A DNA stretch of 64,000 bases from Candidatus Omnitrophota bacterium (lineage in GTDB: Bacteria; Omnitrophota; Gorgyraeia; JABMRN01; RBG-13-46-9), in the NCBI GenBank assembly GCA_013203315.1, contig JABMQJ010000007.1, positions 1-64,000 on the forward strand. Reading direction: 5' to 3'. Made by a program: the position numbers and the translations under genes. Under the pieces are notes generated by a model that was not told the DNA's origin, made no database searches, and worked only from the letters and a program-made list of their open reading frames with translations. This document shows positions 14,832 to 54,104 of the stretch, piece by piece (positions within the stretch are counted from its first letter, which is position 1; each line of letters opens with the position of its first letter).

Positions 14832-16820
14832 TTATGCCTTTTTTACACTTGCTCCCACGACAACAATTATAAGACTAAAAAGCGAAATCCCCACCCATAA
14901 AGGGTTAAAATAGTCAAAGTACAGATCCAGCCTATACAAGCCTTTCTCCGGCAGCGAAAGCTTCATGAGATTATACTCGTCCCACATGATGCGCGCCGGC
15001 TCTCCGTTCAAGCGTGCACGCCAGAGCGGGTGGCGGGCGATTTTAACAAAAGCGACATTTCTTGGCGAATCATTTCGTATATCGGCCTTTACACGCTGGT
15101 TCTCCAAAGATAACTTTTCATAAGCAGCTTCTTTTTCAAAGCTTATCCATTTGCCCCGAAAATCTTTTAAACGGAATATGCTGAAAATACCAAAATCCGC
15201 CTGATCAGAAAAGAATCCGGATTTGGCCAGTTTATTCTTTAAGTCCGGCTCCACGGTTACGATGTGGCTTGCGTTAAACCGATCCATTGTACTTTTGATC
15301 CGGGAATTTTCAATTTCTTTTACCGGCACACCGAATATCCTTCCCTGGTCATTACGCATGTACTTCTCCTGAGGAAAGGATGAAGCGGAGCGCGAAACGC
15401 CTATTTGCGGAATCCGTGTAAAAACGCCCGACAGGGCAAATGCGTCGCTTCTTTTTAAAATGGGGTCATCCACATTGCCAATCGTGTTTTGATATACAAT
15501 TCTGGACCGGCCGAGGGGTATATTCTCGTTAACCCAATCCCAAACCTTGTAAATGTCCGACATCTGGGGTGATTCCTCCAATGTCCGGGAAGCATCACGC
15601 GCAATATAATTGTAATGCGAGGCCGCGGAAAACATTAACAAAATTACGCATATAGCCGCCAGAATACCCCTTCTTCCGAAACGCTTGAACAATCTACCGG
15701 CGCCATAAGCCGCAAATACATACATACACAATTGTATGTACACGAAGAATCTGCTCATCTGTAGAGTTGGAACCAGAGGTATCTTGTGCCACCAATCAAA
15801 ACCCGTAAAAAGATCTATAAAAAACGGGAAACATATTACCACGAACCAAAAGATACGCCATAAAGAACGCTTTGTATTTGGATTTTTTTCGCTTTTGAAA
15901 AATAGGAATGCACCCAAAAGGCTAAAGAAAATTCTTGCCATAACAGGCAAGTTTATTGCAAGCGTTGAGGCGCCGGTTACCGTTGTAAGCGGGCCAAAGA
16001 AGGATTTCGCGCCCCACCGGATGCCCTCTTCGAGGGGCGTTGCGCCACCCAATTTCTCAAAGTAATTCCCTCCGATAAAAAAACCTGCCAGATAGTAAAA
16101 AGAAATCATGACGGCTGACAAGGGTATTATATATGAACAGATTAAAGATTCCGTAAAACGAATTTTTCCTCTGTACGCATTTAGCACATAGGGAATCAAA
16201 TATATAAAAAGAATGATTCCTGTGATTATCGCCGCGTAGATATGGACCAATATGATTGAAGCAAAAATAAGCCCCAAAAGAAAGGCCTTCTTTAACGTCA
16301 TGGCCTTAATGTTTTTGTCCAGTAGGTGCAAAAATATGAAGAAAAGTCCGATTGCCAGAAAATTATTCCACATGCCGACAAGAATTTTGTCGTAATAAAT
16401 ATCGCTTTGCAGCATAAGGCAGGCGGTAATAAGCATTGAGGGCATTTTGCCGAAACGAAACGAGGTAAATTTATAAAATCCGGCGCCCATAAATACATAG
16501 CTAAACAGGACCATTAGTTTATAAGAAAAATTAAGCGGGAGGAAAAATACCTTGTTTAAAACGACCATTACTAGCGACGTTAACTGGTTATAATCAATAA
16601 AAATAGGCATGCCGGCCATCCCCTGCATGCTCCAACCGCTTATCCAGTGGTATTTGGGAATGAGTGTATTAGCTAAATAGTAGAGATCGTAATAATGGAA
16701 AGAGTTGTCATATCCTGACATAAGGCCGGGAGCAAATATGCCCCTAAACATGAAAAGCCCGAGGGCTGCGATCAGTACATAATAGATATAATATTTTGTA
16801 TATTTTACCAAGATAGCCAT
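14832..16820 (-). CDS. YfhO-like GT-C membrane glycosyltransferase
   Basis: GYDNSFHY early loop, W....MAGMPIF.DY, about 11 TM, large extracytoplasmic domain ending HPLWRARLNG and a terminal TM. Confidence 0.6.
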   Translation of the reverse strand: MAILVKYTKYYIYYVLIAALGLFMFRGIFAPGLMSGYDNSFHYYDLYYLANTLIPKYHWISGWSMQGMAGMPIFIDYNQLTSLVMVVLNKVFFLPLNFSYKLMVLFSYVFMGAGFYKFTSFRFGKMPSMLITACLMLQSDIYYDKILVGMWNNFLAIGLFFIFLHLLDKNIKAMTLKKAFLLGLIFASIILVHIYAAIITGIILFIYLIPYVLNAYRGKIRFTESLICSYIIPLSAVMISFYYLAGFFIGGNYFEKLGGATPLEEGIRWGAKSFFGPLTTVTGASTLAINLPVMARIFFSLLGAFLFFKSEKNPNTKRSLWRIFWFVVICFPFFIDLFTGFDWWHKIPLVPTLQMSRFFVYIQLCMYVFAAYGAGRLFKRFGRRGILAAICVILLMFSAASHYNYIARDASRTLEESPQMSDIYKVWDWVNENIPLGRSRIVYQNTIGNVDDPILKRSDAFALSGVFTRIPQIGVSRSASSFPQEKYMRNDQGRIFGVPVKEIENSRIKSTMDRFNASHIVTVEPDLKNKLAKSGFFSDQADFGIFSIFRLKDFRGKWISFEKEAAYEKLSLENQRVKADIRNDSPRNVAFVKIARHPLWRARLNGEPARIMWDEYNLMKLSLPEKGLYRLDLYFDYFNPLWVGISLFSLIIVVVGASVKKA

Positions 16821-16936
16821 GCGTATTGTTCTCCTGAAACGGCTTGATTCGCACTCAACAGTTTCTCATATTCTTAGGCCAGCGTCAATTCATTTTTTGC
16901 AGATAGGGACGGTTCTGGCCTCGAACGTGAAATACG

Positions 16937-16965
16937 TTGAAATAAGCGCGAAGATGATATAAAAT
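16937..16965 (+). promoter_or_regulatory. Sigma70-type promoter for the plus-strand island
   Basis: TTGAAA-N17-TAAAAT, 27 bp before ATG 16993. Confidence 0.55.
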
Positions 16966-16992
16966 ACATAACCGTAATAAGGTGCTAAAAAA

Positions 16993-17375: not shown

Positions 17376-17380
17376 TTAAA

Positions 17381-18934
17381 ATGGCCAACATTAGTTTTAT
17401 TACACTTTATGACAAGGGATGCATGGGCACAAGATATCTATCCTCCTTGCTAAAAGCGGAGGGGCACGCAACATCTATAGTATACTTAGGAAGGCATGAG
17501 GGAAAAATCAAAAAGGGTAACGATGCCTTAAATTCCGACGAGGATCTGTGGATAAGTGTTAATGAGTACGGGAAAGACTTGGTTCGTAGCTATTCTGACC
17601 CAATCAGCGAAAACGATATAGATATTTTACTGGATCTCCTGGCTAAAATAAAACCTGATGCGCTGGGCTTTTCCCTGCGATCCATGTTTTTAAACACAGC
17701 CACACAACTAGTAAATCGGATTCGGGAAAAGTTTGATTTCCCTATTATTTTCGGCGGAATAGCCGCGACATGCGATCCCGAAAAATGTATTCGTGAGGCA
17801 GACATAGTCTGCTTAGGCGATGGCGAACAGGCCATGTTAGAGATAGCCCGACGGATAGACAAGAAAGCCCCCTTAAACGACGTAAATAATCTCTGGGTGC
17901 GTTCTAACGATAATATTTATAAAAATGGGTTATACCCGCTTGAACAAAATCTGGATAAATTCCCCTTTCCGGACTACGACTCTTTAAATAAATTCTCGAT
18001 TCACAATGGCGCGCTTATTGAAAACGATCCTGCCATCGGCAACATGAGTAAATATACCTACGAAATCGTAACATCACGCGGGTGCCCTTTTTCATGCACC
18101 TACTGCTGTAATGACGTGCTTAAAAATACTTATGAGGGGCAGAAATACCTTCGTCGGAGATCCGTAGAAAATGTTATCGACGAATTGAAAATCGCAAAAG
18201 AAAAGCACGGCATAAAATCCGTCCTATTCAAGGATGAAGTCTTCACGTTTGATTTGAATTGGATTAAAAATTTTTCTGAAGCTTACAAAAAGGAAATTGC
18301 CCTCCCCTTCTGGTGTTATACGTATCCGGCGTTTGCTGATAGTCAAATTCTTAATTTGCTAAAAGATTCCGGCATGTTTAATGTAACGATGGGCATTCAG
18401 TCCGGCAGCGAAAGCATCCTTTACAATACTTTTAATCGAAGGACCTCGATAGAGAAAATTATTTCTGCCGCGGATACCCTGATACGTTTAAAATTGCCTA
18501 TAAGGCCCCGTTATGATATCATAACCAATAATCCGTTTGAAACCGAGAACGATCGCCAGGCTACCCTTGAATTATTGATGCGCCTTGATAAGCCCGTAGA
18601 TTTTGGATTAACCAAACTTTCCTTTATACCGGGATCCAAGATCGTCCGGATGCGGGAGGAAAAACACATAACCGGAGTAGTCGACGAAGATCTTTATAAG
18701 TTTTGGAATACTTTATATTTATTGAATCAATATAGTTTTTTCCCTAACCGTTTCATTAGGGCTTTGAGTAGAAGTAAGTTTTTCCGGGACAAACCGCAAT
18801 TTTTGCAGTTGTTGCTTGTGCCTAAATTCGCAGAAACCAAATTTCAGGGTTTTTTGGATTCATTGAAGGGATGTATACCCGGAAATGCTATCTTATTTTT
18901 GAAGAAAATCCGTTATATTGTAAAAAGATACTAA
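17381..18934 (+). CDS. B12-binding radical SAM protein
   Basis: N-terminal cobalamin-binding-like fold (FGGIAAT, GDGE), SRGCPFSCTYC, GIQSGS. Confidence 0.85.
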   Translation: MANISFITLYDKGCMGTRYLSSLLKAEGHATSIVYLGRHEGKIKKGNDALNSDEDLWISVNEYGKDLVRSYSDPISENDIDILLDLLAKIKPDALGFSLRSMFLNTATQLVNRIREKFDFPIIFGGIAATCDPEKCIREADIVCLGDGEQAMLEIARRIDKKAPLNDVNNLWVRSNDNIYKNGLYPLEQNLDKFPFPDYDSLNKFSIHNGALIENDPAIGNMSKYTYEIVTSRGCPFSCTYCCNDVLKNTYEGQKYLRRRSVENVIDELKIAKEKHGIKSVLFKDEVFTFDLNWIKNFSEAYKKEIALPFWCYTYPAFADSQILNLLKDSGMFNVTMGIQSGSESILYNTFNRRTSIEKIISAADTLIRLKLPIRPRYDIITNNPFETENDRQATLELLMRLDKPVDFGLTKLSFIPGSKIVRMREEKHITGVVDEDLYKFWNTLYLLNQYSFFPNRFIRALSRSKFFRDKPQFLQLLLVPKFAETKFQGFLDSLKGCIPGNAILFLKKIRYIVKRY

Positions 18935-18961
18935 TCGCAGTACAGAGAGAAGGGTTAAATA

Positions 18962-19690
18962 ATGCTTTGGCTAATGTTTGCGGCCTATAACGAAAGAGAG
19001 AATCTTGCCAACCTGCTGCCCGGGCTATCAAACTTCCTGGAAGGCAAGATTAAAGACTATAAAATATTAATCGTCGATGACGGCAGTACCGACTCGACAA
19101 AAAATATCGCCGATTCTTTGGATAAGCCCCTCCCCATCGAAATAATTTCGCATGAAAAAAATAAGGGAGTCGGTGAAGTATTTAAAACCGGCTTCTCTGC
19201 GATAAGCCGTCTCGCCGGGCAAGATGATCTCGTAGTCGTCCTGGAGGCAGATGGAACCAGTGACTACACGTTAATACCTGAATTGGTCAGGAAACTCGAA
19301 GGCGGCATGGATATAGTCATCGCTTCTCGCTATATAAAAGGTGGTGCCTATAGGAATTTTCCGCTAAAAAGGCATTTAATAAGCCATATCGGCAATGTTA
19401 TTTTAAGCATGGCATTCAGGAATAAACGCATAAAAGACTACACTATATTTTTTAGAGGCTACCGGGTCGAGCTCCTGAAGAAGGCCCTGTCGCAGTATAA
19501 GGACGGGTTTATTACATCAAATACGTTTCTTGCCAATACGGAAGCGCTTATAAACCTTACGAAACTTACCGATAAGATAGATGAGGTCCCGTTCGTATAT
19601 TCCTATGAGGTAAAAATCGGTAAGAGTAAAATGCCTCTTCTAAAGACGCTTTTTGATTATATCAAATTCCTGCTTACTAAACGCGCTTGA
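18962..19690 (+). CDS. GT2, DPM1-like polyprenyl-phosphate glycosyltransferase
   Basis: AYNERENL, VDDGSTD, NKGVG, EADGT, IASRYIKGG, GKSKM. Confidence 0.85.
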   Translation: MLWLMFAAYNERENLANLLPGLSNFLEGKIKDYKILIVDDGSTDSTKNIADSLDKPLPIEIISHEKNKGVGEVFKTGFSAISRLAGQDDLVVVLEADGTSDYTLIPELVRKLEGGMDIVIASRYIKGGAYRNFPLKRHLISHIGNVILSMAFRNKRIKDYTIFFRGYRVELLKKALSQYKDGFITSNTFLANTEALINLTKLTDKIDEVPFVYSYEVKIGKSKMPLLKTLFDYIKFLLTKRA

Positions 19691-20411
19691 CCGCTCGAGC
19701 ACTTCGCTCGCGAAAATAAATCGCATACCACACACGCCAAACGTCCGCCATGGCGCCAAAAAGTACGCCCATCCTAATTCCGTGCGAGCGGCCGCTTCTC
19801 CTGGGAGAAGTTTCAACCGGATAGTCAATTATGCGATACCCGGCGCGGGTTGCGCGTATTAAACGTTCCGCCTCCGAAAACGGAGTTTTAGAAACCAATG
19901 TAAATTTCTCGATAATTTCACGCTTCATAAGCTTGACAGCCCCCGCGTCAAATGTATGAATCCCAAATAATGCACGAGGCACCATATTAAAAAACCATGA
20001 AATAAATTCCCTCCATAGCCCGTAATTCTTTTTCTTCCGTCGCGCGATAACTATATCGCACTTCCTCACCAAAGGCAACATTTTCAAAATTATCGCGGTA
20101 TCCCATTGTCTGTCGGAGGCATTCACGAAAATAAAGTCCTTTCTGGATTCTTTATATAAATGTTCAAAACTGGCGTGTATCCCGATATTGCGCGGATGGT
20201 TAATTACGCGAATGTCGGGAAAGCGTCCGACCATCTCCCTGATTTTCTCGGGTGAACGATCCGTTGAACCGTCGTTGCAAACTAAGATTTCATAATCCAG
20301 CCCGGAATTTGCGAGAAGCCGGTGAGAACTTTCCAGTACTTCGCTTATCGTAGCTTCCTCGTTATATACGGGAAATCCTACCGAGACACTGGGAAGATTC
20401 ATGTTTTTCAT
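19677..20411 (-). CDS. GT2, DPM1-like glycosyltransferase
   Basis: PVYNEE, CNDGSTD, HPRNIG, RRSGRS. Confidence 0.8.
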   Translation of the reverse strand: MKNMNLPSVSVGFPVYNEEATISEVLESSHRLLANSGLDYEILVCNDGSTDRSPEKIREMVGRFPDIRVINHPRNIGIHASFEHLYKESRKDFIFVNASDRQWDTAIILKMLPLVRKCDIVIARRKKKNYGLWREFISWFFNMVPRALFGIHTFDAGAVKLMKREIIEKFTLVSKTPFSEAERLIRATRAGYRIIDYPVETSPRRSGRSHGIRMGVLFGAMADVWRVWYAIYFRERSARAVKRV

Positions 20412-21941: not shown

Positions 21942-23246
21942 TCACCACAGTCCTATGCGTTCGGCGAATCCTTTAACAAAACTTTTTGTTATGGCGGAAT
22001 ATTTAAATAAAAAATATGTGAAAATAAAATATCCGCTCACATATAGCAGGGAATATATTTTTTGTCCTCCCTTATTTACAAACCCGTAGATACCGTAAGA
22101 ACCCAGAAGGATAATATAGCCGTCTATCGGCATCCTGTAACGCGAGAACCCCGGGAATAATAAGGTAAACGACATAAAATATAAAATTACAATAAGTATG
22201 TTCCAAATTTCTTTATTCTCTTTAAACGCGAAAAAAGTGCCTAAAAAAGCGAAGGGTAACATAAAAATATACTGAAAATTAATAACATTCCCTCCCAAGA
22301 TTTCCCAATCAATGATATTCCAGAAAAATAAAAATCTTATGGCAAACATTTTAAGCGCAAATAAGGGTTGTGTTCTATAAATTTTTATCGCCTCGTGCAT
22401 GAAAAAATTATTACGTTCGGCCTCATTCGACATAGTATCATAGTTAATCGACATCGGGCTGCCCGGAGGGAAAGTAAATATCATGCCGTCCGCGGGCTTG
22501 CAGAGCCCTTGGTACATATTGATCCCGCCGTTTGTCGAGACTAATACAAATTTTCCATGGGCCCTGTAGTTTCGGACCGTCCAGGGCACTATTAGGATTA
22601 AAAAACAGAGGGCGAGCGCTAAAGAAAAGGCCGCGATTTTCGTCCATGGTAACTTGTTTTTACGCATTTTTGGAAGTAAAATAAAAAGTACTATAAAAGG
22701 CAGGAAGACGGCTGCTGATCTTGTGAGAGTAGCAATGCCGCATAATATACCCAACAGACAAAACCATTTCACGCCCGGTTTCTTGGCGATAATAGCCAGA
22801 TAGATTATGGAAACCAAAAGAAACGTAAAAAGTGTTTCGGTGTATAGCATTTTTGAGCAAATAATAAACGTCATGTAAAGGGATGAAAAAATACCCGTGA
22901 TTATCGCCGTGGGCTTGTTAAAAATTTTCTCTGCCGTTAGATAAAGGATGCATACCGTGATAGAAGATATGATAACTTGGATAACCCGAACGGCAAAATA
23001 ACTGTGGCCGAATATGGCGTAAATAAACGCCAGGAAGCCTGCGTAAAACGGCGGTCTGTACGAAGTTGCGGCACCATCGGAATCCACATAGGCCCTTTCC
23101 TCCAAAAGCCTCATAGCTAGATTATCATGCTCGATTTCGTCCGTTTCTATTCCGGTGGGGCTACCCGCCAAATACAGGACCCGGATCGAAAATGCCGCAG
23201 CAAAGATAAGCAGAACTATTAGTAAACCTTTGTACTTGTTTCCCAT
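21942..23246 (-). CDS. ArnT/PMT-like GT-C glycosyltransferase
   Basis: DEIEH acidic loop, YRPPFY, YTETLF, LTRS, PWTVRNY...STNGGIN; ATG 23246. Confidence 0.8.
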   Translation of the reverse strand: MGNKYKGLLIVLLIFAAAFSIRVLYLAGSPTGIETDEIEHDNLAMRLLEERAYVDSDGAATSYRPPFYAGFLAFIYAIFGHSYFAVRVIQVIISSITVCILYLTAEKIFNKPTAIITGIFSSLYMTFIICSKMLYTETLFTFLLVSIIYLAIIAKKPGVKWFCLLGILCGIATLTRSAAVFLPFIVLFILLPKMRKNKLPWTKIAAFSLALALCFLILIVPWTVRNYRAHGKFVLVSTNGGINMYQGLCKPADGMIFTFPPGSPMSINYDTMSNEAERNNFFMHEAIKIYRTQPLFALKMFAIRFLFFWNIIDWEILGGNVINFQYIFMLPFAFLGTFFAFKENKEIWNILIVILYFMSFTLLFPGFSRYRMPIDGYIILLGSYGIYGFVNKGGQKIYSLLYVSGYFIFTYFLFKYSAITKSFVKGFAERIGLW

Positions 23247-23253
23247 AATAATA

Positions 23254-24282
23254 TTACGTTTTGTTGGCCGCAACCCCTGCCAGTATATCCGTCATCCTTG
23301 GCCCGCACACATTGTAAGAATAATATTCTTTCACCCGCTGCCTGCCCTGCTGCCCCATTCTCTCCCGCAACGAACGATCTTCAATCATTCGAGAAAGTTT
23401 ATCAAACCACTCTTTGTCGGTTTCTGCTAAATATCCGTTTGTGCCGTCAGTAATTAAACTGGCGTTTATGCCTACGGGGCTTGCAACGCAAGGGATCCCT
23501 CTGGACATGTAAAGTAATAATTTATATCCGGCCTTTTTACAGGACCACTCGTTTTGCTCCAGAGGCATGATGCCTATATCGATCTCATCGAGAAATTTAT
23601 TTTGTTTTTCGATAGACCATTCTGGTATCGTTACACCCAAAGCCTCAAGGCCTTGATTCCTTTCGGCGCCCATGAATTCTATATTCAGATTTTTAAATTT
23701 GTCTTTTAAATCTTTTAAAACAGGCAAAATAATGGAAAGATATTTGGAGGTTTCCGGGGAACCCACCCATCCTAAAGTAGCAAAGCTTTTCCTTTTCGGC
23801 AAAACTTGATTACTTACATCAACCGGGCTAATCAAGTAATGTACGTTTCGATTGTGCTTGCATGCGAATTGCCCAAATTCTTTATGTGAAACGATAACAG
23901 AAGCTGCATCTTTTAACATATATCCGATATCCCTATCGAGGTAAATTGCGTCGTCAAAGTCGAACACAATGTTTTTGTTTAAGGCTTTGAGCATCTTCAG
24001 TATTATTTTAGGCAGTATTACTTTTTGCACAAAGATAATATCGTATCTTTTCGATAATATAAAAACAGCCATAAAGATGTATATTTTATAGAAAGTTTCT
24101 AAAATATATTGCCATGCGCTGTCCTTCTTTAAGTTCAGTATCCGCCTGCATTTAGCGTGCGTGGTAAAAGAAAGAACGTTATAAGCTATGCCCTTTTCTT
24201 TCAGAAAAGGCAGATATCCATATACCCTAGCCCTTGTGCTTGCAACAGTTTTATCGCCTATGGTCAAAAAAAGTACTTTCAT
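23254..24282 (-). CDS. GT4 glycosyltransferase (paralog of 9216-10292)
   Basis: STRARV, FDFDDAIYL, GWVGSP, DIGIMPL, YKLLLYMSRGIPCVASPVG. Confidence 0.85.
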   Translation of the reverse strand: MKVLFLTIGDKTVASTRARVYGYLPFLKEKGIAYNVLSFTTHAKCRRILNLKKDSAWQYILETFYKIYIFMAVFILSKRYDIIFVQKVILPKIILKMLKALNKNIVFDFDDAIYLDRDIGYMLKDAASVIVSHKEFGQFACKHNRNVHYLISPVDVSNQVLPKRKSFATLGWVGSPETSKYLSIILPVLKDLKDKFKNLNIEFMGAERNQGLEALGVTIPEWSIEKQNKFLDEIDIGIMPLEQNEWSCKKAGYKLLLYMSRGIPCVASPVGINASLITDGTNGYLAETDKEWFDKLSRMIEDRSLRERMGQQGRQRVKEYYSYNVCGPRMTDILAGVAANKT

Positions 24283-26974: not shown

Positions 26975-28200
26975 CGCACCCCCTGTTTTTTCTTATTCAG
27001 AAAAGATTCGGTGACTTCTTTTATGTTTTTCGCTATGTAATCTACGTGCTCTGTGGTATAGAACTCATTCCACGGTAAAACCAGGACCTGCTCAAGAGCC
27101 TTCATCGTGCCGGGATATTCGGCAGTATCGTAAACAACTTCTTTTTCACCTTTCCTGCTTGAGCAATCGTATGGACAATGGCTCTTGCCGTAGGTTACCT
27201 TGTCTTTTAAAACTTTGCACATAAAGGCCGGTTTCTGTATATATCGCGGTACCGAAAAAATGTCTTTTTCCTTAAGTACCTTAGAGATTTCCGTTACACC
27301 TACGCCGAATAAATCGGTATCAACGATAAGGGCGTATTTCCAGAAAACATGCTCGCTATCTTTCGTAGATTCCGGCAAGGTTATACCGGGCGTACCCCGA
27401 AGACGCTCTGTAAGCAATTTTGCTGTATCCTGTCGTCTTTTCACAACGCCTCTTACTTTCCTAAGCTGCGCCAAGGCTACTGCGCCCTGAAGATCGGTCA
27501 TTCTATAGTTTAAAGCGAGGAAATAGTGATCCGGATTCGGGTCTCCGTATCCCCAGGCTTTATCGATGAATAGCCTTATCCTTCGCTCGAGTGCGGCGTC
27601 TTTTGTAATGATTATACCGCCCTCGCCTGTTGTCATGTGCTTACCCTGTTGCAGGCTAAAACAGCCTATGTCGCCTATAGTTCCAACGTTTTTGCCCTTG
27701 TAAGTGGCAAAATAGGCCTGACAGCAATCCTCTATTACAGGAATTTTATGTTCTCGCGCAAGATCCATTATAGGATCCATTTCAGCGGGTTTTCCGAACA
27801 AATGCACAACTATTATGGCTTTGGTGCGTTTTGTAATCTTCGGTCTTATGGTATCAGCCGTAATGTTGAGTGTTACAGGATCCGTATCCGCAAAAATAGG
27901 TATCGCATTTTGATAAAGTATGGGTGTTATGCCTCCCATGTCCGTTATAGGGGTTGAGATGATTTCATCCCCCGGATCAGGGTTTACAGCAGCAATCGCT
28001 GTGTGGAGCGAAGATGTTCCGGAGGTCGTAGCATGAGCAAACCTTACACCGCATTCTTCGGCAAACTCCTTTACGAGTTTCTTAACCATAGTCCCCTTTG
28101 TCGCGTTTAGCGTACCGGATTCGATCACCTCTTTTAAAAGAGCTATTTCTTCTTTTCCTAAATCCCTTCCGGTTGAATTAGAATCGTTTGGCAGTTTCAT
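26971..28200 (-). CDS. DegT/DnrJ/EryC1/StrS aminotransferase
   Basis: PGDEII, EDCCQA, FSLQQGKHMTTGEGG, LNYRM; ATG 28200 follows GGAG. Confidence 0.9.
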   Translation of the reverse strand: MKLPNDSNSTGRDLGKEEIALLKEVIESGTLNATKGTMVKKLVKEFAEECGVRFAHATTSGTSSLHTAIAAVNPDPGDEIISTPITDMGGITPILYQNAIPIFADTDPVTLNITADTIRPKITKRTKAIIVVHLFGKPAEMDPIMDLAREHKIPVIEDCCQAYFATYKGKNVGTIGDIGCFSLQQGKHMTTGEGGIIITKDAALERRIRLFIDKAWGYGDPNPDHYFLALNYRMTDLQGAVALAQLRKVRGVVKRRQDTAKLLTERLRGTPGITLPESTKDSEHVFWKYALIVDTDLFGVGVTEISKVLKEKDIFSVPRYIQKPAFMCKVLKDKVTYGKSHCPYDCSSRKGEKEVVYDTAEYPGTMKALEQVLVLPWNEFYTTEHVDYIAKNIKEVTESFLNKKKQGVR

Positions 28201-28910
28201 GCGTTCTCCTTTCTTAACAATGTTCTCATAATAAAACACAAATGTTCCCTTATTAACTTTAAGCTTTTTGCGTGAGAAGATCCGAATTGTCTCACCTTTA
28301 AGGTAGCCGGGTATTCCACTATCTTCAGACCTTTCTTTCGCGCTTTTATCAATATCTCCGCCATTGCGAGAAACCCGTCAGACCTAAAATATGAATTTTT
28401 CAGGGCTTCTCTTTTATATATCCTAAACATGCTAGTATAGGTATAAAACTTGGATTTTACCACAATATTGTATAAATTTGAAAGATTTCTGCTCAAAAAC
28501 AGCCTATAAGCCGGCACGTTAAGCGTCGAGCCCTTTGGGTGATAAGGAGAAGCTGTGACAATATCAGCGTTTTCGTTTTTGATAATGTCTAGCATTTTAA
28601 CTAAATAGCTTGGTTCGTAAGTACAATCTGAGTCTATTGTTGCTATATAATCCCCGCGCGAATTCGATGCGCCTGTCTTAATAGCAGCGCCTACGCCCGT
28701 ATTTTTAGCGTGCTTTACGACCTTGACATCATTTCCGATTCGATCTCTATAGAGGCTGCGCAAGCGATCGTACGTAGAGTCTGAACTTCCGTCATCAACA
28801 AAAACAAACTCATGATCCTCGCGCAGATCCTGCTCCAGGTCTTTAAGCTTGGAGGCAAGATGTTCCAGGCCTTCTTCTTCATTAAAACATGGGATAACAA
28901 TAGATATCAT
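28197..28910 (-). CDS. GT2, DPM1-like polyprenyl-phosphate glycosyltransferase
   Basis: SIVIPCFNEE, VDDGSSD, IDSDCTY, TASPYHPKG, RQFGSS. Confidence 0.85.
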   Translation of the reverse strand: MISIVIPCFNEEEGLEHLASKLKDLEQDLREDHEFVFVDDGSSDSTYDRLRSLYRDRIGNDVKVVKHAKNTGVGAAIKTGASNSRGDYIATIDSDCTYEPSYLVKMLDIIKNENADIVTASPYHPKGSTLNVPAYRLFLSRNLSNLYNIVVKSKFYTYTSMFRIYKREALKNSYFRSDGFLAMAEILIKARKKGLKIVEYPATLKVRQFGSSHAKSLKLIREHLCFIMRTLLRKENA

Positions 28911-39454: not shown

Positions 39455-40877
39455 CGCCTATTTTCTCCTTCACCTTGCCTAATGACCAGCCAAAGGTCTT
39501 CATTGCGCCCTCGGCTTTTATTCGTTTTTTAAGGTCTTCGAATATCCTTTTTGATTCTTCGGTCGCAATTTCAATCCTGGAACGCAGGCTAAAGTTTTCT
39601 CTTATTTTCGCTTCCGCTCTTTCTTTCAAACTCTTAAGCTCCTTATCGGACATCGTGGTTAAATTCACCAGAAGCGTGTTATACATCTCGCCTAGCGAGC
39701 TTACATATTTATTTTCGTCATCCGGTATTTTCCGCATTTCTTTCGCCATCTCATAAAGCGGGGTATTGGGATAAGGCGTTGTGTAGAAAAACCGGTGAAG
39801 CGTTAGGCCCGTTCTTTTTATAAACTCTACGGTTTCATTAACACTTTCCTCGGTTTCGCCGATCATTCCTATCATGAAAGAGCCCTCTATGCCGATACCC
39901 GCTTTTCTTGTAAATTCCACCGCTTTTTCCGCCTGTTCTACTCTTACCCCTTTCTTTATGCTATCCAGCATTCTTTGGCTCCCCGACTCAAATCCATAGC
40001 TTAAAGCCTCGCAGCCCGCTTTTTTCATCTTTTTAAGTAAGTTCAGATCCACCAGATTTACTCTTGCTGAAGCGCCCCAGCCGATTTTAAGTTTTTCTTT
40101 TATCAGGGCATCGCAAAACTCCTCTACCCAGGACCTGTCGATCGTAAAGAGGTCGTCGGTAAAGCCTATGAACTCTATATTATAACACCGTTTAAGCTCT
40201 TTTATTTCGGCGACAATGCTTGCCGGTGAGCGTTTATATACACGGGGACCAAAGGGCCTGGAGCAATAGATGCATTGAAACGGGCACCCCCGCACCGTGG
40301 AGATATTCATGCTTCTTCTACCGTATTCAGTGTGGATCGGATTATTAATATAAGTTTCCATTTGAAAAAGATCCCAAGCCGGAAAGGGAATTCTGTCCAG
40401 GTCTTTTATTCTCTCTCTGGGAGCCGTAGAGACAATCCGATTTCCTTTCTTAAAAACTATTCCTTTGACGCTATCTATTTCAGGAAAATCTTTTATTCTT
40501 TGCATTAGCTCTCTTATTGTTTCTTCGCCCTCGTCAATCACGCATATATCAATCTGTGAATGACGCAGCAATAACTCCGGAGATGAGGTTGAAACCATGT
40601 TGCCCGCGATCATCATGACATTCGGTTTTACTTTTTTTGCAATGTTGGAAAACTTTTTTACAAAGTCATAAGTTGTAGTTAACCCACCGATACCTATGGC
40701 ATCACAATCTACTGTTTCAAGCTCCCTCTCAATGGCTTCGTATGGCTTCTTGCTCACGTTGAAATCCATTAAAGACACGTTGTGACCTTCCTGCCTCAGC
40801 ACGCTTGCGACATATCCCAGTCCCAGAGGAATAAGGGAAGGCGTTCTGCACGGCGGATTAACCAAGAGAATATGCAC
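39447..40877 (-). CDS. B12-binding radical SAM protein
   Basis: LLVNPP, PLGLGYVA, DEGE, TVRGCPFQCIYC, DDLFT, GFESGS, PYPNT. Confidence 0.9.
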   Translation of the reverse strand: MHILLVNPPCRTPSLIPLGLGYVASVLRQEGHNVSLMDFNVSKKPYEAIERELETVDCDAIGIGGLTTTYDFVKKFSNIAKKVKPNVMMIAGNMVSTSSPELLLRHSQIDICVIDEGEETIRELMQRIKDFPEIDSVKGIVFKKGNRIVSTAPRERIKDLDRIPFPAWDLFQMETYINNPIHTEYGRRSMNISTVRGCPFQCIYCSRPFGPRVYKRSPASIVAEIKELKRCYNIEFIGFTDDLFTIDRSWVEEFCDALIKEKLKIGWGASARVNLVDLNLLKKMKKAGCEALSYGFESGSQRMLDSIKKGVRVEQAEKAVEFTRKAGIGIEGSFMIGMIGETEESVNETVEFIKRTGLTLHRFFYTTPYPNTPLYEMAKEMRKIPDDENKYVSSLGEMYNTLLVNLTTMSDKELKSLKERAEAKIRENFSLRSRIEIATEESKRIFEDLKKRIKAEGAMKTFGWSLGKVKEKIGVE

Positions 40878-48912: not shown

Positions 48913-48914
48913 TT

Positions 48915-49826
48915 TTATTGATCCCCCTTTAACATTGTTCTTAATCCATGTTCAAAACCAATGGGCTTGAAACTCAATTCACCCTGGGCAGAGCCGATGT
49001 CCGCCAGTTTATCCTGGTCTATGCTTAAAATTTGCTGACTATGAGTTCGCAGAAAACGGTTAATTTTCCCTAAAACCAGGCACAGCCTTTTAACCGGGGC
49101 TATGGGTAAATGAACTATCATCCTTTTTTTACCCAATACCCTTAGGATAGTCTGTACAATCTCGTTCATGGTCAATGCAGAAGGTCCGGCTATGTCATAA
49201 ATCTTTCCGGTAGTTCCTTCAAGCTCTATACATTTTTTTATGGCATAGATTAAATCGCCTACATATACGGGTTGCCGCTTGTAATACCCGTCTCCGAATA
49301 TGGGCACTAAAGGTGAATGTCCTATAAACTTTATGAGAGAAGATATGTGTTTGTCGTCGGACTGGCCGTATACAACGGTTGACCTTAAGATCGTATAATT
49401 TAAAGAGCTTTCCTTTAGTTTTTTTTCGGCGGCCAATTTGGTACCGCCATACAAAGAATGCGGTACCAGTTCTGCATCAATTGAGCTTACATAAACAAAC
49501 TTTTCTATATTCGCGCCCAACGATACATCTATCATGTTTGACATGCCGCGAACATTTACGTCTTCGAATTCAGCCTTATTCTTAGAATTTATTACAGAGG
49601 CCAGGTGTATGCAAAAATTTGCATTGCCGATTGCATTTTCCAGTGAGTCTCTATCCTGCAGATCGCCCAGAACTGTGGTTATGTTCTTTGACTTCCACAA
49701 ATCCTTATGTCTGTCACGGCGAACAAGGCATCGAACGTGAGAGCCCTCTTTTGCGAGCTTGTCTACCAAATGCCTCCCGATAAAACCGCCGGCTCCGGTT
49801 ACAAAGTAGATATTATTTTTTTTCAT
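48915..49826 (-). CDS. NAD-dependent epimerase/dehydratase (extended/atypical SDR)
   Basis: [28 protein letters not shown]. Confidence 0.85.
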
Positions 49827-51333
49827 GCCGCCTATGCTTATAAAGCATCTCCTGCAATACCCGGTCTACTTTCGTTTCCTGTTTTCCGGTAAATAGGTTA
49901 ACCAAAAGTCTTACGAACCTCCAGGGTCTAATAGCAAAGGAAATAGCATAAAACATAATCAATCCGCGTATCTTAAAGCCTAAAAGCTCACTTTTGCTCA
50001 AGCTGGAATTCCAGGAATCTGTTTTATTCAATGACAACGAAGAAAATAGCGCAAAATAAAATTCATTGGTTAATTCAAAACGTTTTGGATCTTTTTCCTT
50101 GAGCTCATCAAATACGGAAGTACCCGGAATCGGGATAAAAGTCGAGATGGCAATCTCGTGTACCCCTATAAGGGCCATCTTTCTTATTAGTTTAAATGTC
50201 TTTTTAATATCCTCGACGGTTTCGCCCGGGAAACCGATTAGAAAGAAAAGGCAGACGGTCATTTTGGAACTTATGGCGGCCTTTATCGAATTTTCTAATT
50301 GACGAAGGTCAATCGTTTTACCCATTTTATCTAATACATCTTTACTGCCGCTCTCCGGCGCAAATGTGATATCCCTGCAGCCGGATTTCACAAGCAGCTC
50401 GGTAACCTCCTTGTCGATAACAACGGTCCTAGTACCCACCGGCAGCTGCCAGCGTATTCCAAGATTACGGCGTAATATTTCGTTCGCAAAACGCACTATC
50501 CAGTCCTTGCGTATAATGGCTGTCAGATCCATAAGGTGAAAATCATTGGTTTTATATTTATTCATATAAAATTCGATTTCGTCGACAACTTTTTCAACGC
50601 TCCTCGGCACCCAGACGGAACCCCACATGTTCCGGGCCGTGCAAAAACGGCATCTATAGGGGCATCCGCGGGTTGCGATTATGGGCATCGTGCGCCCTTT
50701 GCTCGCACCCATAAAAAGTCCTCTTTCGATATACTTTTCCACATCTATCAAATCCCACGCAGGGGGCGGGATAGAATCTAAATTTCTTATGCGCGGACGC
50801 GGCTTATTTGCAATAGGTTTTTGCCCGTCCATATAAGCAATGCCGCTTATGTCATTTAAACGATCGCCTTTCTTTATTGAATCGGTTAATTCCTCAAATG
50901 TAATTTCGCCCTCGCCCAAAACACAGAAATCCACGGGGGAACTCGACAAAACTGCTTCCCACATACCGGTAGCATGTTCGCCTCCCATGACAAGGGGTAT
51001 GTCCGGAAAACGCTTCTTTATTGCTTTTACCAATTCGCGCACATACGGCCAAACGGGTGTAAACATGCAGGTAATACCGATTACGTCCGATTCCGCCGGA
51101 ATATTATTGACTATTTCATCTGTAGCTAATCCCTGCACGACGATATCTCTGTTAAGCGAGTGACCTGACCGTTTGTCCATGGCCTGCCCCACAGCATCTA
51201 TAACGTGCACATTATGGCCCTTCTCGCGCATATATGAAGCTATGTAACATAGTCCCAGCGGTGGATGGAAAATAGATGAGTAATTTAATTTTAACTCGAA
51301 ATGCGGGGGATTAATCAACGTTATGTTATTCAT
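49813..51333 (-). CDS. B12-binding radical SAM protein
   Basis: LINPP, PPLGLCYI, MGGEHAT, GEGE, ATRGCPYRCRFC, PESGS, GFPGET. Confidence 0.9.
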   Translation of the reverse strand: MNNITLINPPHFELKLNYSSIFHPPLGLCYIASYMREKGHNVHVIDAVGQAMDKRSGHSLNRDIVVQGLATDEIVNNIPAESDVIGITCMFTPVWPYVRELVKAIKKRFPDIPLVMGGEHATGMWEAVLSSSPVDFCVLGEGEITFEELTDSIKKGDRLNDISGIAYMDGQKPIANKPRPRIRNLDSIPPPAWDLIDVEKYIERGLFMGASKGRTMPIIATRGCPYRCRFCTARNMWGSVWVPRSVEKVVDEIEFYMNKYKTNDFHLMDLTAIIRKDWIVRFANEILRRNLGIRWQLPVGTRTVVIDKEVTELLVKSGCRDITFAPESGSKDVLDKMGKTIDLRQLENSIKAAISSKMTVCLFFLIGFPGETVEDIKKTFKLIRKMALIGVHEIAISTFIPIPGTSVFDELKEKDPKRFELTNEFYFALFSSLSLNKTDSWNSSLSKSELLGFKIRGLIMFYAISFAIRPWRFVRLLVNLFTGKQETKVDRVLQEMLYKHRRHEKK

Positions 51334-51373: not shown

Positions 51374-52699
51374 TTAAAAAGGTAAAAATTTCCTCCATAG
51401 CTGTACCAGATGTTTAAATTGTTTTCTTATGTATGAAAATCTGAAATAATAGTTAAGAAAAGCCCATTCCTTAAGGTTCTTCAGGGTCTCTTTCGACATA
51501 TTTTTGTTGCGTACGACCGGGGTAAAAGAATTAAACTTCTCCCAATCGGGCTCTGTTATAAGTTTCTTGATCCGTCTATAAAATTCTGTTCCCGGAAAAG
51601 GCGTGAGAATGTGAAATTGCGCCAAAAAAGTATTTAATTTCTTTGCGTAACTAACGGTTTCTTTTATAGTCTGGACCGTATCGTCCGGAAGCCCCAGGAG
51701 ATAAAACGCTATTATTTTAATGCCTTTTTTTTCGCAGTATCTGATGATCCTTTCCTGGCGTTTTATGTCCACGGCTTTTCTGCTGGCTTTGTCCAGGAGA
51801 TCCTGCCTGGCCGACTCGATTCCGAGATTAATGGCTTTTAAGCCCGCCTTGTACATGCTATCAATCAAGCTTTCGTCAAGCAAATCGGTTCTCGTCTCGC
51901 AGGCCCATTCAAGATTAAATTTATTTTTGATCATGCCTTCAGCAATTTGCCTGGATCGCTCTTTATCCAACGTGAATAGCGGATCCCGGAATAAAAGGCC
52001 TTTTATTTTAAATCGATCTTTCAAATATTTTATTTCTTCAATTACGTTCTCCGGGCTTCTCGCCCTCCAGTTTTTCTGGTACGTGAGATATGGGCAATAA
52101 TTACAGGCAAATGCGCAACCCCTGCTTGATTGCATGGAAAGGAACGGCTTCTTTCTTATCGAAGGGGAATAATAGTAGTTACTAATATCAAAAAAATCCC
52201 ATTTCGGAAAAGGTAACTTATCCAGCTCCTGCAAAGAAGGGCTATCTACCACACCTTTTGGAATAAAGCCTTTTGAAATTTCCATCGCCGCATGTTCGGG
52301 TTCGCCTTTTATGATAAAATCCCCGAATTTAAGGTATTCATCGGTTAAGTACCCCGCAAATGGCCCTATGAAACCTATTTTAGCCTCCGGGTATTTCTTT
52401 TTTATTTCCGAGGCCCTGCGCAATTCTGACTTATAATCTACTATTGAAGAAGCCAGAATAAATAAATCCCCCTGTGGTATTTTATCGCCGTGCATAACTT
52501 CAATTTCATGCCCACCTTTCGAAAATATGCTTGCCATATACCCCAGGCTTAATATCGGAATGTTTCGTAAAACTTTTTTCTGCCGCATAATCCATCTGGC
52601 AAAAAAAGATTCTCCGACCTGGGTGTTAATTCCGTAACCCCCCATTTGGTCCTTATTTACAGCGCTATCCGAGGTTCGTTCAACTAATACTATTTTCAT
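51374..52699 (-). CDS. B12-binding-like radical SAM protein (compact N-terminal domain)
   Basis: GEPE, SSRGCAFACNYCPY, RDPLFT, GIESA, LGLPDDT, TPFPGT. Confidence 0.85.
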   Translation of the reverse strand: MKIVLVERTSDSAVNKDQMGGYGINTQVGESFFARWIMRQKKVLRNIPILSLGYMASIFSKGGHEIEVMHGDKIPQGDLFILASSIVDYKSELRRASEIKKKYPEAKIGFIGPFAGYLTDEYLKFGDFIIKGEPEHAAMEISKGFIPKGVVDSPSLQELDKLPFPKWDFFDISNYYYSPSIRKKPFLSMQSSRGCAFACNYCPYLTYQKNWRARSPENVIEEIKYLKDRFKIKGLLFRDPLFTLDKERSRQIAEGMIKNKFNLEWACETRTDLLDESLIDSMYKAGLKAINLGIESARQDLLDKASRKAVDIKRQERIIRYCEKKGIKIIAFYLLGLPDDTVQTIKETVSYAKKLNTFLAQFHILTPFPGTEFYRRIKKLITEPDWEKFNSFTPVVRNKNMSKETLKNLKEWAFLNYYFRFSYIRKQFKHLVQLWRKFLPF

Positions 52700-54104
52700 T
52701 GCATAAATAGGATTGAATCAATCCGTTAATTTCCGTTTTCCACATTGCATACAACGGAAACAGTAGTATAAGAAGCGGTATAAGCGGAGAAAAATGGGTT
52801 ATAACATTAAGATTTCGTATATGGTGTGTGGTTATGTTATGCAGCCATTGGGCAAGATTCGAATTTAGGCCTTTAAATGCAAATAGCCCAATGTTTATAA
52901 AGGAACTGTCCGCGTCACCGTATTGAACCCCGCACCAGTTAATAAGCATAGACAGTGCGGCTACCCAAAGTATTATTTTGTATTTAACTTTTCTATAGAC
53001 AAATACAAGCGGTATCATTAGAAAGGGTACAAAACACAAAAGATACCTTGGTCCGAAATCTCCTCCCCACGGCCATATCCAATTGGCGAACATGGCGATG
53101 ACGATAAAAACAGAAAGTGAGAATGCGGATATTAAAAGTATCTCGGCCATATATTTTTTTTCCGGTTTCTTAAAAAAAAGAGCTATTCCGTAGACTGAAA
53201 AAAGCAGCACCGGCATATACATAAACATACCGCGATAAGTGCCAAAAGTAAGCTCGAATATCATTCTCGGCCGCGGGAAAGATAGCGGTACGCGCCCTAC
53301 CATAGCGCTGTAAGTAGTAGCCATCGCGAACGGATTATCGAAACATCGGTAGTGATAATATGCATATATGGCGCCGATTGATAAAGCGCCCAGAATAAGA
53401 AAAACATAATTTAATATTTTATCCTTCCTGAAGCTCAAGATACCATATGCAAAGATAAGGAAAGATCCTATGGCCAGCATATAATCCGTAAGTACTGCTA
53501 GCCCAAGACATATCCCCGTTAAGAAAAATGAAAGGTTTCCTGATGGTGTACTCTTAGATCTAAATAGTAAATAAAAAGCGCTAAACAACGCAAAAGCCCC
53601 TAATGTTTGGGACAAAAATCTTGTTGAGCAATAAAATAAAATAGTTCCGAACGCGCATATGAAAACGGTAAGAATCCTTTCTTTCTCCTTCATATCAAAT
53701 TTTTGCAGCAAATCGTACAGCAAAACCGCGATTACCGCGCCCGGTAGAACTGAAAGAAAAAAAGCGAAAAAGAGGTTTAAAATACTAAATTCGAAATTCT
53801 GGTAGATTGCTTGCGGAATAGCGCTCAATAATGGTTTGAGAATAACATAAAGCGGTGCAGCCAGCAAACTTAAGCCGGGAGCAGCGCCTATGTAGTAGTG
53901 TCCTTTAAAGAATGCCTTATCGCGGGTATGATCAGAATACTTATCTATAACAAAAGTTCTGTCTTCAACAATAGATTTCGTCAATATTATATAACGATTG
54001 GTACCGGCAGTTACGTAGCCGGGAGCAATATAGAACAGGTAGACAAGCAATACCGTTAAGAAGATCTTAACTTTGGTATTCCGTAGTATCTGCATATTTT
54101 TCAT
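52680..54104 (-). CDS. Polytopic membrane protein, GT-C-like
   Basis: About 11 TM; D.A..GHYY...APGLS, FDNPF, RGMF.Y.P, WGGDFGPRYL. Confidence 0.6.
   Translation of the reverse strand: MKNMQILRNTKVKIFLTVLLVYLFYIAPGYVTAGTNRYIILTKSIVEDRTFVIDKYSDHTRDKAFFKGHYYIGAAPGLSLLAAPLYVILKPLLSAIPQAIYQNFEFSILNLFFAFFLSVLPGAVIAVLLYDLLQKFDMKEKERILTVFICAFGTILFYCSTRFLSQTLGAFALFSAFYLLFRSKSTPSGNLSFFLTGICLGLAVLTDYMLAIGSFLIFAYGILSFRKDKILNYVFLILGALSIGAIYAYYHYRCFDNPFAMATTYSAMVGRVPLSFPRPRMIFELTFGTYRGMFMYMPVLLFSVYGIALFFKKPEKKYMAEILLISAFSLSVFIVIAMFANWIWPWGGDFGPRYLLCFVPFLMIPLVFVYRKVKYKIILWVAALSMLINWCGVQYGDADSSFINIGLFAFKGLNSNLAQWLHNITTHHIRNLNVITHFSPLIPLLILLFPLYAMWKTEINGLIQSYLCNENSIS

Follow-up and report, generated by a model that had tools for sequence, protein, structure and literature searches.

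What do six radical S-adenosylmethionine (SAM) enzymes do in a locus that builds a surface glycan? The question arises from the first 64,000 nucleotides of contig JABMQJ010000007.1 (assembly GCA_013203315.1) of a Candidatus Omnitrophota bacterium, which we refer to as the window. Nearly all of it is one surface-glycan locus on the minus strand, as judged from its open reading frames (ORFs) and their Pfam and NCBIfam matches, and the radical SAM genes are embedded in glycan biosynthesis, with glycan genes as neighbours throughout, much as a first-pass annotation of this DNA had read them. That annotation also proposed a recurrent module of radical SAM genes with DPM1-like glycosyltransferases of family 2 (GT2) and membrane glycosyltransferases of the GT-C type. 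Comparison across genomes upholds such a module for three of the six families, those of genes 30311, 51374 and 28920 (genes are named by their first coordinate). Gene fusions in the first of these families, together with the conserved adjacency found for all three, point to undescribed radical chemistry on surface sugars.

Six radical SAM genes in one glycan locus

The six genes, with their Pfam scores, are:

17381..18934, plus strand: rS1, class-B radical SAM (Radical_SAM 67.5 bits, B12-binding 35.6 bits)
28920..30314, minus strand: rS2, class-B radical SAM, HpnJ/QCMT-like (B12-binding 86 bits, Radical_SAM 98 bits)
30311..31345, minus strand: rS3, SPASM radical SAM (Radical_SAM 49 bits, SPASM 30 bits)
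39447..40877, minus strand: rS4, class-B radical SAM in the pseudaminic acid operon (B12-binding 74 bits, Radical_SAM 95.5 bits)
49813..51333, minus strand: rS5, class-B radical SAM, between rS6 and a short-chain dehydrogenase/reductase (SDR) gene (B12-binding 76 bits, Radical_SAM 79 bits)
51374..52699, minus strand: rS6, AprD4-like radical SAM (Radical_SAM 72 bits only)

All six are long intact ORFs, each with a single strict CxxxCxxC motif, in agreement with the earlier reading. Five of them had been taken for B12-type enzymes. This holds for four, whose scores for the B12-binding domain PF02310 exceed the cut-off of 32.1 bits (17381, 35.6; 28920, 86.4; 39447, 74.1; 49813, 75.9), and fails for 51374, which has no Pfam B12-binding match and resembles AprD4 rather than a B12 methylase. 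The SPASM assignment of 30311 was correct, with PF13186 at 30 bits against a cut-off of 21.5. GenK and Fom3 are cobalamin-dependent (class B) radical SAM methyltransferases, and the four B12-binding proteins share the B12-binding and radical SAM core of that class, to which MgmA/QCMT (PDB 9ccb), a glutamine C-methyltransferase of MCR, also belongs. They differ from it in scoring below every curated family cut-off; indeed no NCBIfam cut-off was reached by any of the six proteins.

Each radical SAM protein was searched against 301 Omnitrophota genomes, and about 8 kb was fetched on either side of the best matches. Neighbouring ORFs were found with a simple longest-ORF caller and labelled by BLAST to the Pfam-annotated proteins of the window, by self-built GT2 and PMT profiles and, for unlabelled membrane proteins, by Pfam. 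The large membrane neighbours identified by Pfam belong to PMT_2, PMT, YfhO, DUF2079 and PF03706, and many others have no family. As a control we took 280 other genes of the same loci that are neither radical SAM nor glycosyltransferase genes and have at least three genes on each side, which asks whether a radical SAM gene lies closer to GT2 or GT-C genes than the average gene of the same glycan locus does. In this control a GT2 gene lay within one gene in 53/280 cases and within three in 147/280, a GT-C gene within two genes in 36/280 and within three in 59/280, and an SDR gene was adjacent in 6/280.

The co-occurrence test, which the first-pass annotation had suggested, gave an answer that hinges on the radical SAM subfamily. 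The families of 30311, 51374 and 28920 showed the recurrent association, 17381 and 49813 stayed at the control level and 39447 belonged to a pseudaminic acid context. We therefore rejected the candidate reading in which all six enzymes are members of a GT2/GT-C module.

Three families beside membrane glycosylation genes

The SPASM enzyme 30311 (rS3) has a CNSKCRSC motif at residue 26. In its C-terminal part, C265, C283 and C321 occur in all of 20 sequences, and for C319 and C325 conservation is 90% or higher, giving an auxiliary domain with five conserved cysteines; a full SPASM motif has seven. The gene overlaps that of a GT2 which the first-pass annotation had not listed, the last 4 bp of the GT2 gene being the start of rS3:

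31342..32169, minus strand: partner GT2 of 275 residues with C-terminal transmembrane helices (Glyco_trans_2_3 61.7 bits; GT2 56 bits, from profile position 66)

A GT2 gene lies within one gene of rS3 in 18/19 Omnitrophota loci, compared with 53/280 in the control. For other phyla we scanned one genome per species, which gave 80 loci with the anchor labelled in 70; the GT2 is adjacent in 27 of these and fused in 2 (29/70), against 45/456 for control genes two or more positions away from it. The partner is upstream of the rS3-family gene in 30 cases and downstream in 12, typically immediately upstream with the gene ends overlapping or nearly touching. At E <= 1e-20 the family has 1128 members in the protein collection, all with generic names, and the loci of the genome scan come from Acidobacteriota, Patescibacteria, Planctomycetota, Chloroflexota, Desulfobacterota, DPANN archaea and others.

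Gene fusions seal this conserved link. By Pfam, a 700-residue protein in locus L175 joins GT2, radical SAM and SPASM domains and one in L191 joins GT2 and radical SAM, while in L166, L182 and L193 a PF03706 membrane domain is fused to radical SAM and SPASM. A YfhO-like gene precedes the rS3-family gene in the latter three loci and in L156. Among 21 rS3 homologs of 603-2000 residues, PF00535 is present in 16 and PF03706 in 1, with GT4 domains only in 2 and radical SAM domains only in 2. We regard this architecture as strong evidence that rS3 would physically work with a membrane-anchored glycosyltransferase. Such natural fusions of GT2 and radical SAM also offer single-polypeptide targets for reconstitution.

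By sequence the partner GT2 is not of the DPM1-like type that had been expected beside these enzymes. A profile of 25 partner sequences matches the chondroitin synthase K4CP best in the PDB (170 bits), followed by GalT1 (109 bits) and PcManGT (106 bits). The partners have 290-400 residues and, by a crude hydropathy count, one to five C-terminal transmembrane peaks, an architecture compatible with a polyprenyl-phosphate glycosyltransferase and unspecific. None of the solved radical SAM enzymes is close to the rS3 profile, the matches being SkfB at 69 bits, MoaA at 62 bits and the tetraether synthase 7tol at 52.7 bits, with BtrN matched in the auxiliary-cluster region only.

Two cultured anaerobes carry rS3-family genes, Pelotomaculum terephthalicicum JT (L177) and the delta proteobacterium NaphS2 (L198), and in both an SDR_303-like gene directly follows. 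They are possible experimental models for genetics and glycan chemistry.

The second family is that of the AprD4-like enzyme 51374 (rS6), which in the window stands with two further genes:

48915..49826, minus strand: extended SDR, NDUFA9-like, partner of rS6 (Pfam Epimerase 104 bits)
52680..54104, minus strand: GT-C of 474 residues (LA_3751/2 family 76 bits, cut-off of 200 missed)

The best PDB sequence match of rS6 is AprD4 (6fd2), whose 110.8 bits are far above those of TsrM, the second best (29.8 bits). An AlphaFold2 model of rS6, built from 13 sequences with a predicted local distance difference test (pLDDT) score of 88.2, superposes over its full length on 6fd2_B with TM-scores of 0.83/0.81 (E 1.3e-27), and the second-best Foldseek match, TsrM, has a TM-score of 0.62. 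The two proteins are 20% identical. AprD4 and AprD3 are described as a radical diol dehydratase and an NADPH-dependent reductase (passages of PMC5461906), which deoxygenate C3' of paromamine by radical dehydration and subsequent reduction, according to passages in reviews. One such passage, in a review on radical SAM enzymes that depend on B12, groups AprD4 with enzymes that bear no relation to true B12 users.

We found matches to rS6 at E <= 1e-60 in 20 other genomes. Eighteen loci were fetched, two very short contigs being left out, and 17 remained after one lacked a called anchor ORF. An SDR_303-like gene adjoins the rS6 ortholog in 13/17 of these (control 6/280), which parallels the pairing of AprD4 with a reductase. 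The best PDB match of the window's SDR 48915 is the 39-kDa subunit of complex I, at about 78 bits. A GT-C gene lies within two genes of rS6 in 8/17 loci (control 36/280), its Pfam families being PMT, PMT_2, YfhO and DUF2079. Such a cell-surface glycan context with a GT-C neighbour sets rS6 apart from AprD4 and AprD3, as there is no aminoglycoside cluster around it. The window has GT-C 52680, rS6, rS5 and SDR 48915 in this order, with rS5 between rS6 and the SDR, and TviB- and TviC-like genes just upstream of the GT-C/rS6 block. In L056 and L059 the order is PMT_2, a GT2 with transmembrane helices, YfhO, a PMT-like gene, rS6, SDR, an AsnB-type amidotransferase and a methyltransferase, and parts of this order recur in further loci of one Omnitrophota lineage.

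The GT-C nature of 52680, a gene that shares its last 20 bp with the start of rS6, is upheld by structure. It has 4350 homologs at E <= 0.001, with a PMT_2 match in 11 of 46 aligned, and all 16 Foldseek matches of its AlphaFold2 model (pLDDT 93.1) at E <= 0.001 are GT-C enzymes (ALG12, ArnT, AglB, Pmt4, PglB, STT3, ALG3).

A metagenome scan for rS6 relatives returned 80 loci with four close orthologs, of which one has an SDR and a GT2 downstream, one a PMT-type gene two genes downstream, one an adjoining GT2 and one a protein with nine transmembrane helices upstream. No SDR gene followed any of the 17 distant relatives (24-30% identical, labelled best as rS6, with a called downstream gene), nor any of 50 metagenome loci labelled best as another radical SAM. 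The lack of an SDR beside distant relatives confines the rS6-SDR pair to the close subfamily.

In L056, L059, L060, L062 and L067 the rS6-SDR pair is followed, one or two genes downstream, by an AsnB-type glutamine amidotransferase of about 630 residues. L064 and L065 also have the AsnB-type gene, and the automated counts did not label its neighbours there as an rS6-SDR pair. The label comes from Pfam for the L056 member and, for the remaining six, from a BLAST grouping with that member. The gene hints that the tailored sugar may be a uronic acid turned into an amide.

The third family is that of the B12-type enzyme 28920 (rS2). Two small GT2 genes belong to its surroundings:

28197..28910, minus strand: DPM1-like small GT2, directly downstream of rS2 (Pfam GT2 112.5 bits; dolichyl-phosphate mannose synthase (DPMS) 89.4 bits, then GtrB, ArnC)
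32170..32901, minus strand: DPM1-like small GT2 (all seven PDB sequences matched at E <= 1e-6 are polyprenyl-phosphate glycosyltransferases: DPMS, GtrB, ArnC)

Eight rS2 orthologs, 44-56% identical, were found in Omnitrophota genomes. A GT-C gene lies within three genes in 5/8 of their loci (control 59/280) and a GT2 adjoins in 3/8 (control 53/280); in L071 and L075 the adjoining GT2 is an ortholog of 32170 (63% and 67% identity). The best PDB matches of rS2 are MgmA/QCMT 9ccb (99 bits) and AprD4 (85 bits). HpnJ (TIGR03471) is the best NCBIfam match of rS2, at 251 bits, and of rS6, at 179 bits, both far below the cut-off of 577.6. A hopanoid role of these HpnJ-like genes was rejected, since the 97%-complete genome has no match to squalene-hopene cyclase (PF13243, 0 matches).

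Proposed radical chemistry on lipid-carried sugars and its rivals

The reading that we favour, with a confidence somewhat better than even, is that the window is the core of a surface-glycan locus, Wzx-dependent, of the O-antigen type and over 60 kb long, in an uncultured member of the Omnitrophota with a small genome, and that three of the six interleaved radical SAM subfamilies serve the membrane glycosylation machinery as dedicated partners. Ordinary nucleotide-sugar pathways (rml, pseudaminic acid and a 2,3-diamino uronic acid type) would run beside several lipid-carrier side-branch modules, each made of a DPM1/ArnC-like GT2 and a GT-C transferase. SPASM enzyme 30311 and membrane-anchored GT2 31342 would act as one unit, in which the radical enzyme starts an oxidation or epimerisation. 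Enzyme 51374 and SDR 48915 would form a dehydratase and reductase pair, by analogy with AprD4/AprD3, taking a hydroxyl group off the ring of a hexose or hexosamine and passing the product to GT-C 52680. Enzyme 28920 would act with the DPM1-like GT2 32170 and a PMT_2-type GT-C, probably in C-methylation or an HpnJ-like rearrangement. The radical enzymes would act from the cytoplasmic side, their substrate being a sugar that polyprenyl phosphate already carries or a membrane-bound glycan, and the modified sugar would then be flipped and transferred by the GT-C. Enzyme 39447 would belong to the pseudaminic acid pathway, and 17381 and 49813 would tailor sugars outside any conserved GT2/GT-C link. 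Sugar tailoring within lipid-carrier glycosylation is the most likely role of these enzymes, and it is the substrate stage that we infer.

A broader proposal, which we put forward tentatively and at less than even confidence, is that in anaerobic bacteria and DPANN archaea sugars bound to polyprenyl phosphate are remodelled by a widespread, undescribed class of radical SAM enzymes associated with the membrane, and that new donors for GT-C transferases arise in this way. Editing at the carrier would then comprise deoxygenation (the AprD4-like enzyme and SDR), C-methylation or ring rearrangement (B12 enzymes) and oxidation or epimerisation (SPASM enzymes, often fused to a GT2 or flippase-like domain).

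Several known systems have parts of such a scheme. The three-component systems GtrA/GtrB/GtrC, ArnC/ArnEF/ArnT, CsbB/GtcA/YfhO and the polyprenyl-phosphoribose synthase/MATE/GT136 set of Citrobacter youngae, as described in passages of Kelly et al. 2024 (PMC11127046), resemble the window in its polyprenyl-phosphate-type GT2s, whose best PDB matches are DPMS, GtrB and ArnC, and in the PMT_2, YfhO and ArnT-like GT-C transferases of the same locus. In the Citrobacter system the SDR epimerase ORF13 changes the identity of the donor sugar (passages of the same paper), and an auxiliary enzyme that alters the added sugar is the logic proposed here for the radical SAM enzymes. The systems in those passages contain no radical SAM enzyme, and the C-terminal transmembrane helices of GtrB and ArnC are missing from the window's small GT2s. 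HpnI/HpnK/HpnJ of the bacteriohopanetetrol cyclitol ether and the calditol synthase Cds are cases of radical SAM enzymes that work on lipid-bound sugars, with the chemistry of HpnJ and Cds known from knockouts only (passages of PMC13459092). In the Hpn pathway, as given there, a GT2 loads a hexosamine on a lipid and the radical SAM enzyme then reworks the sugar, as in our proposal; here, in contrast, the lipid would be the carrier polyprenyl phosphate, and a glycan residue would be made in place of a membrane lipid head group. A further parallel is the DprE1/DprE2 pair, in which DprE1 is a flavoenzyme, unlike the proposed radical SAM oxidant. The pair epimerises decaprenyl-phosphate ribose, so that a lipid-linked sugar is oxidised and re-reduced before GT-C use (passages of PMC11127046), and carrier-level editing by a radical SAM oxidant and an SDR reductase would, in logic only, be its oxygen-independent counterpart.

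The first-pass annotation knew of no characterised surface-glycan locus with this many radical SAM genes. In the literature searched, which mostly leaves out subscription journals, no paper describes radical SAM enzymes in O-antigen, capsule or lipid-carrier glycosylation. The terms 'polysaccharide', 'glycan' and 'sugar' occur 0 times in a 2026 review on radical SAM enzymes that depend on B12, as do 'polyprenyl' and 'undecaprenyl' in a 2026 review of lipid-modifying ones. If the favoured reading is true, a radical step within lipid-carrier glycosylation would be a new layer of chemistry in the diversification of microbial surfaces. It would predict deoxy, C-methyl or carbocyclic residues, unreported by glycan analysis for these lineages, and would make the AprD4-like/SDR pair the first diol-dehydratase-type radical SAM system outside aminoglycoside pathways.

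The main alternative, less likely in our view, is that the substrates of all six enzymes are soluble nucleotide sugars of the cytoplasm (UDP-, dTDP- or CMP-sugars), which they would modify by reactions such as C-methylation, deoxygenation or epimerisation, with nearness to GT2 and GT-C genes reflecting only co-transcription in loci very rich in glycosyltransferases. For individual enzymes soluble action is likely (39447), plausible (49813, 17381) or possible (51374, 28920). Gene 39447 sits between pseI and wzx, apart from the GT2/GT-C blocks, as had been noted earlier, and pse genes lie within five genes in 4/9 of its ortholog loci. Four rS5 orthologs lie directly beside RmlA/RmlB/DegT-type genes (L107, L110, L113 and L114). 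The control genes, too, have a GT2 within three genes in more than half of cases, the block of 51374 also holds NDP-sugar enzymes (47980, 46889, 54112 and 55050), and the characterised sugar radical SAM enzymes DesII, GenK and AprD4 act on soluble substrates. Purely soluble chemistry leaves unexplained, however, why rS3-family proteins are fused to transmembrane-anchored GT2s in 16 of the 21 long homologs and to a PF03706 membrane domain next to YfhO, and likewise the adjacency of GT2 to rS3 and the excess of GT-C genes by rS6. The rS6 relatives AprD4 and HpnJ, moreover, act on a hexosamine glycosidically bound to an aglycone and on no NDP-sugar, in the passages of the sources that treat them.

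Could some of the enzymes instead modify a lipid or a peptide, such as the polyprenyl carrier, a membrane lipid tail or head group (the targets of ladderane, GDGT and hopanoid radical SAM enzymes) or, for the SPASM enzyme, a glycosylated ribosomally synthesised and post-translationally modified peptide? SPASM enzymes are mostly peptide maturases, the rS3 profile matches SkfB and the tetraether synthase, PF03706 is a lipid-flippase-type domain, and the best NCBIfam model for rS1 is 'lipid biosynthesis B12-binding/radical SAM protein' (110 bits, cut-off 360). All such scores are far below the family cut-offs, and with glycan genes as neighbours and no squalene-hopene cyclase in the genome we consider this improbable, although no search was aimed at precursor peptides. 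Still less probable is an accidental clustering, in which class-B paralogs of a genome rich in radical SAM genes landed in a hypervariable glycan island. There are 12 B12-binding and 33 radical SAM matches in the 1.5 Mb, rS1-like genes occur in 119/301 Omnitrophota genomes, often in tandem arrays, and passages of a preprint have polysaccharide cassettes as hypervariable regions in Omnitrophota. An accident would account neither for the gene fusions nor for specific neighbours conserved at ortholog level across many families and phyla, and the 13 class-B-like paralogs of the genome are at most 36% identical to one another, which makes them old, distinct subfamilies and no recent local duplicates.

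Other observations count against a dedicated role at the lipid carrier, and against parts of it in particular. For the SPASM pair, the partner profile scores lower with DPMS (83 bits), GtrB (60 bits) and ArnC (56 bits) than with glycan-extending GT2s, so a polyprenyl-phosphate acceptor is not indicated. The window's own GT2 31342 lacks about 35 residues found in all 24 aligned partner GT2s; the missing stretch holds VDDxSxD after the second strand, the DDD and ED motifs are kept, and this GT2 may be impaired or use a different donor. PF03706 proteins are absent from the window, the sole match in the genome being on contig C24. For rS6, the match to the AprD4 family NF033070 is 132.4 bits where the cut-off is 500, and rS6 and 12 aligned relatives have a CX3CX2C motif, unlike the CX3CX3C given for AprD4 (passages of PMC13707489). 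The substrate of AprD4 is a soluble pseudodisaccharide and no lipid. A GT2 within three genes of rS6 (11/17) is not above control, and among the close metagenome orthologs the SDR is downstream in 1/3 with a called downstream gene. Homologs of rS1 have an adjoining GT2 in 5/29 loci, the control level, and another adjoining radical SAM gene in 11/29, while rS5 is at control level too (GT2 adjoining 6/23, GT-C within three genes 5/23). Unlike the three-component systems, the genome has no GtrA-type flippase (PF04138, 0 matches; the ArnE/F and MATE families were not searched). In the genome as a whole PMT_2 matches are not significantly enriched within 10 kb of class-B radical SAM genes (3/17, 2.0 expected), whereas GT2 matches are (10/34, 4.0 expected, binomial p 0.005). 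The neighbour ratios across genomes are given without a statistical test as related genomes are non-independent samples, and the neighbour labels depend on an elementary ORF caller, on BLAST comparison with the window's proteins and on self-built GT2 and PMT profiles.

Remaining genes of the window and genome

The genome comprises 32 contigs, 1.5 Mb in total, at 97% completeness. Besides rmlABCD and two NDP-sugar dehydrogenases (Pfam/NCBIfam), the window holds wecB (410 bits, cut-off 210) and two GFO/hexapeptide/DegT gene sets of the 2,3-diamino-sugar type. The pseudaminic acid set has PseB (502.6 bits, cut-off 407.75), PseI (TIGR03586, 468 bits, cut-off 340.25), a PseG-PseH fusion, PseF and a WbuX-type amidotransferase. 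The Wzx flippase at 37952 is the sole flippase-type gene seen in the window by Pfam, and there are several GT4 and GT2 genes.

Among the radical SAM genes outside the conserved GT2/GT-C link, rS1 has a CPFSCTYC motif at residue 235 and no close ortholog, its best homolog in the 301 genomes being 41% identical. The best NCBIfam score of rS4 is for BchE (225.5 bits, cut-off 481). For rS5 we found matches at E <= 1e-90 in 23 other genomes, and the adjoining rS5-rS6 pair was seen again in genome G231 (L102). In other Omnitrophota genomes tandem arrays of at least five class-B radical SAM genes occur, at G203:C8:79-92 kb, G257:C14:81-94 kb and G298:C5:10-19 kb.

Two further small GT2s lie near rS1:

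18962..19690, plus strand: DPM1-like small GT2, 28 bp downstream of rS1 (Pfam GT2 82 bits; DPMS 5mlz 89.8 bits, then ArnC, GtrB)
19677..20411, minus strand: fourth DPM1-like small GT2 (Pfam GT2 78 bits; DPMS 47 bits, then ArnC, GtrB)

The first-pass annotation had called 18962, 28197 and 32170 DPM1-like, and their best PDB match is indeed the Pyrococcus dolichyl-phosphate mannose synthase 5mlz, followed by GtrB and ArnC. None of the four small GT2s (18962, 19677, 28197, 32170) has a predicted transmembrane helix, and DPM1-like appears a fair label for them by sequence. The putative polyprenyl-phosphate GT2s, 6372 among them, are all below the equivalog cut-offs and were assigned by sequence. 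The pair of rS1 and its GT2 (17381-19690) are the only long plus-strand genes in the minus-strand locus, which suggests that they are an inverted or inserted cassette.

The window has these further membrane proteins:

21942..23273, minus strand: PMT_2-family GT-C, the clearest in the window (PMT_2 69.4 bits, cut-off 26.1; self-built PMT profile 335 bits)
13500..14825, minus strand: polytopic membrane protein of 441 residues, possible GT-C (about 13 hydropathy peaks; PMT 19.4 bits, below cut-off)
14832..16820, minus strand: YfhO/PTPS_related-type GT-C of 662 residues (PTPS_related 23.3 bits, below cut-off)
32904..33884 and 33865..34842, minus strand: two tandem paralogous membrane proteins of about 325 residues (59% identical over 319 residues)
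34836..36125, minus strand: membrane protein of 429 residues with about 10 transmembrane helices, candidate Wzy (no Pfam family)

Genes 21942 and 13500, like the GT2s 31342, 19677 and 6372, are additions to the first-pass list. The self-built PMT profile misses 52680, 14832, 13500 and 32904-36125, and GT-C assignment of these proteins needed structure-level evidence. The earlier GT-C list stands for 52680 and for 14832, whose Atlas structure matches PTPS_related and YfhO clusters at TM-scores of 0.79-0.83 and which has an ortholog in G115. No Pfam family matches the paralogs 32904 and 33865, and none of the fetched loci holds a homolog of them. Their Atlas neighbours are PTPS_related, DUF2079, PMT_2 and YfhO at TM-scores of 0.65-0.75, below the bar for naming, and as a lead only they are possible minimal GT-C cores. 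For 34836 a GT-C nature found no support; its 52%-identical ortholog adjoins wzx in L201 of genome G115.

At 4052-11413 on the minus strand is an Arn-like lipid-carrier module without any radical SAM gene. Its genes encode a 516-residue protein with seven transmembrane helices and no family assignment (4052) and an ArnC-like GT2 with C-terminal transmembrane helices that was absent from the first-pass annotation (6372), which scores 277 bits on the ArnC model where the cut-off is 529. Gene 7316 encodes a UDP-4-keto-pentose/UDP-xylose synthase (529.5 bits, cut-off 294), 8393, at the place of ArnD, a polysaccharide deacetylase, and 10289 a DegT aminotransferase. At 58239-59294, also on the minus strand, a transglutaminase-like protein with tetratricopeptide repeats is encoded among the rml genes, and in L053 the gene immediately upstream of the rS6 ortholog encodes a homolog with 39% identity to it.

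A cobamide supply for the B12-type enzymes is plausible, because the genome encodes CobS and a BtuF-like protein. A BtuF-like binding protein, a radical SAM gene and CobS are grouped at C6:54717-61275, which may be a locus for cobamide salvage or remodelling that feeds the 12 B12-binding radical SAM enzymes. Elsewhere in the genome, at C11:28432-28923, a radical SAM domain lies within an open frame of 5220 residues.

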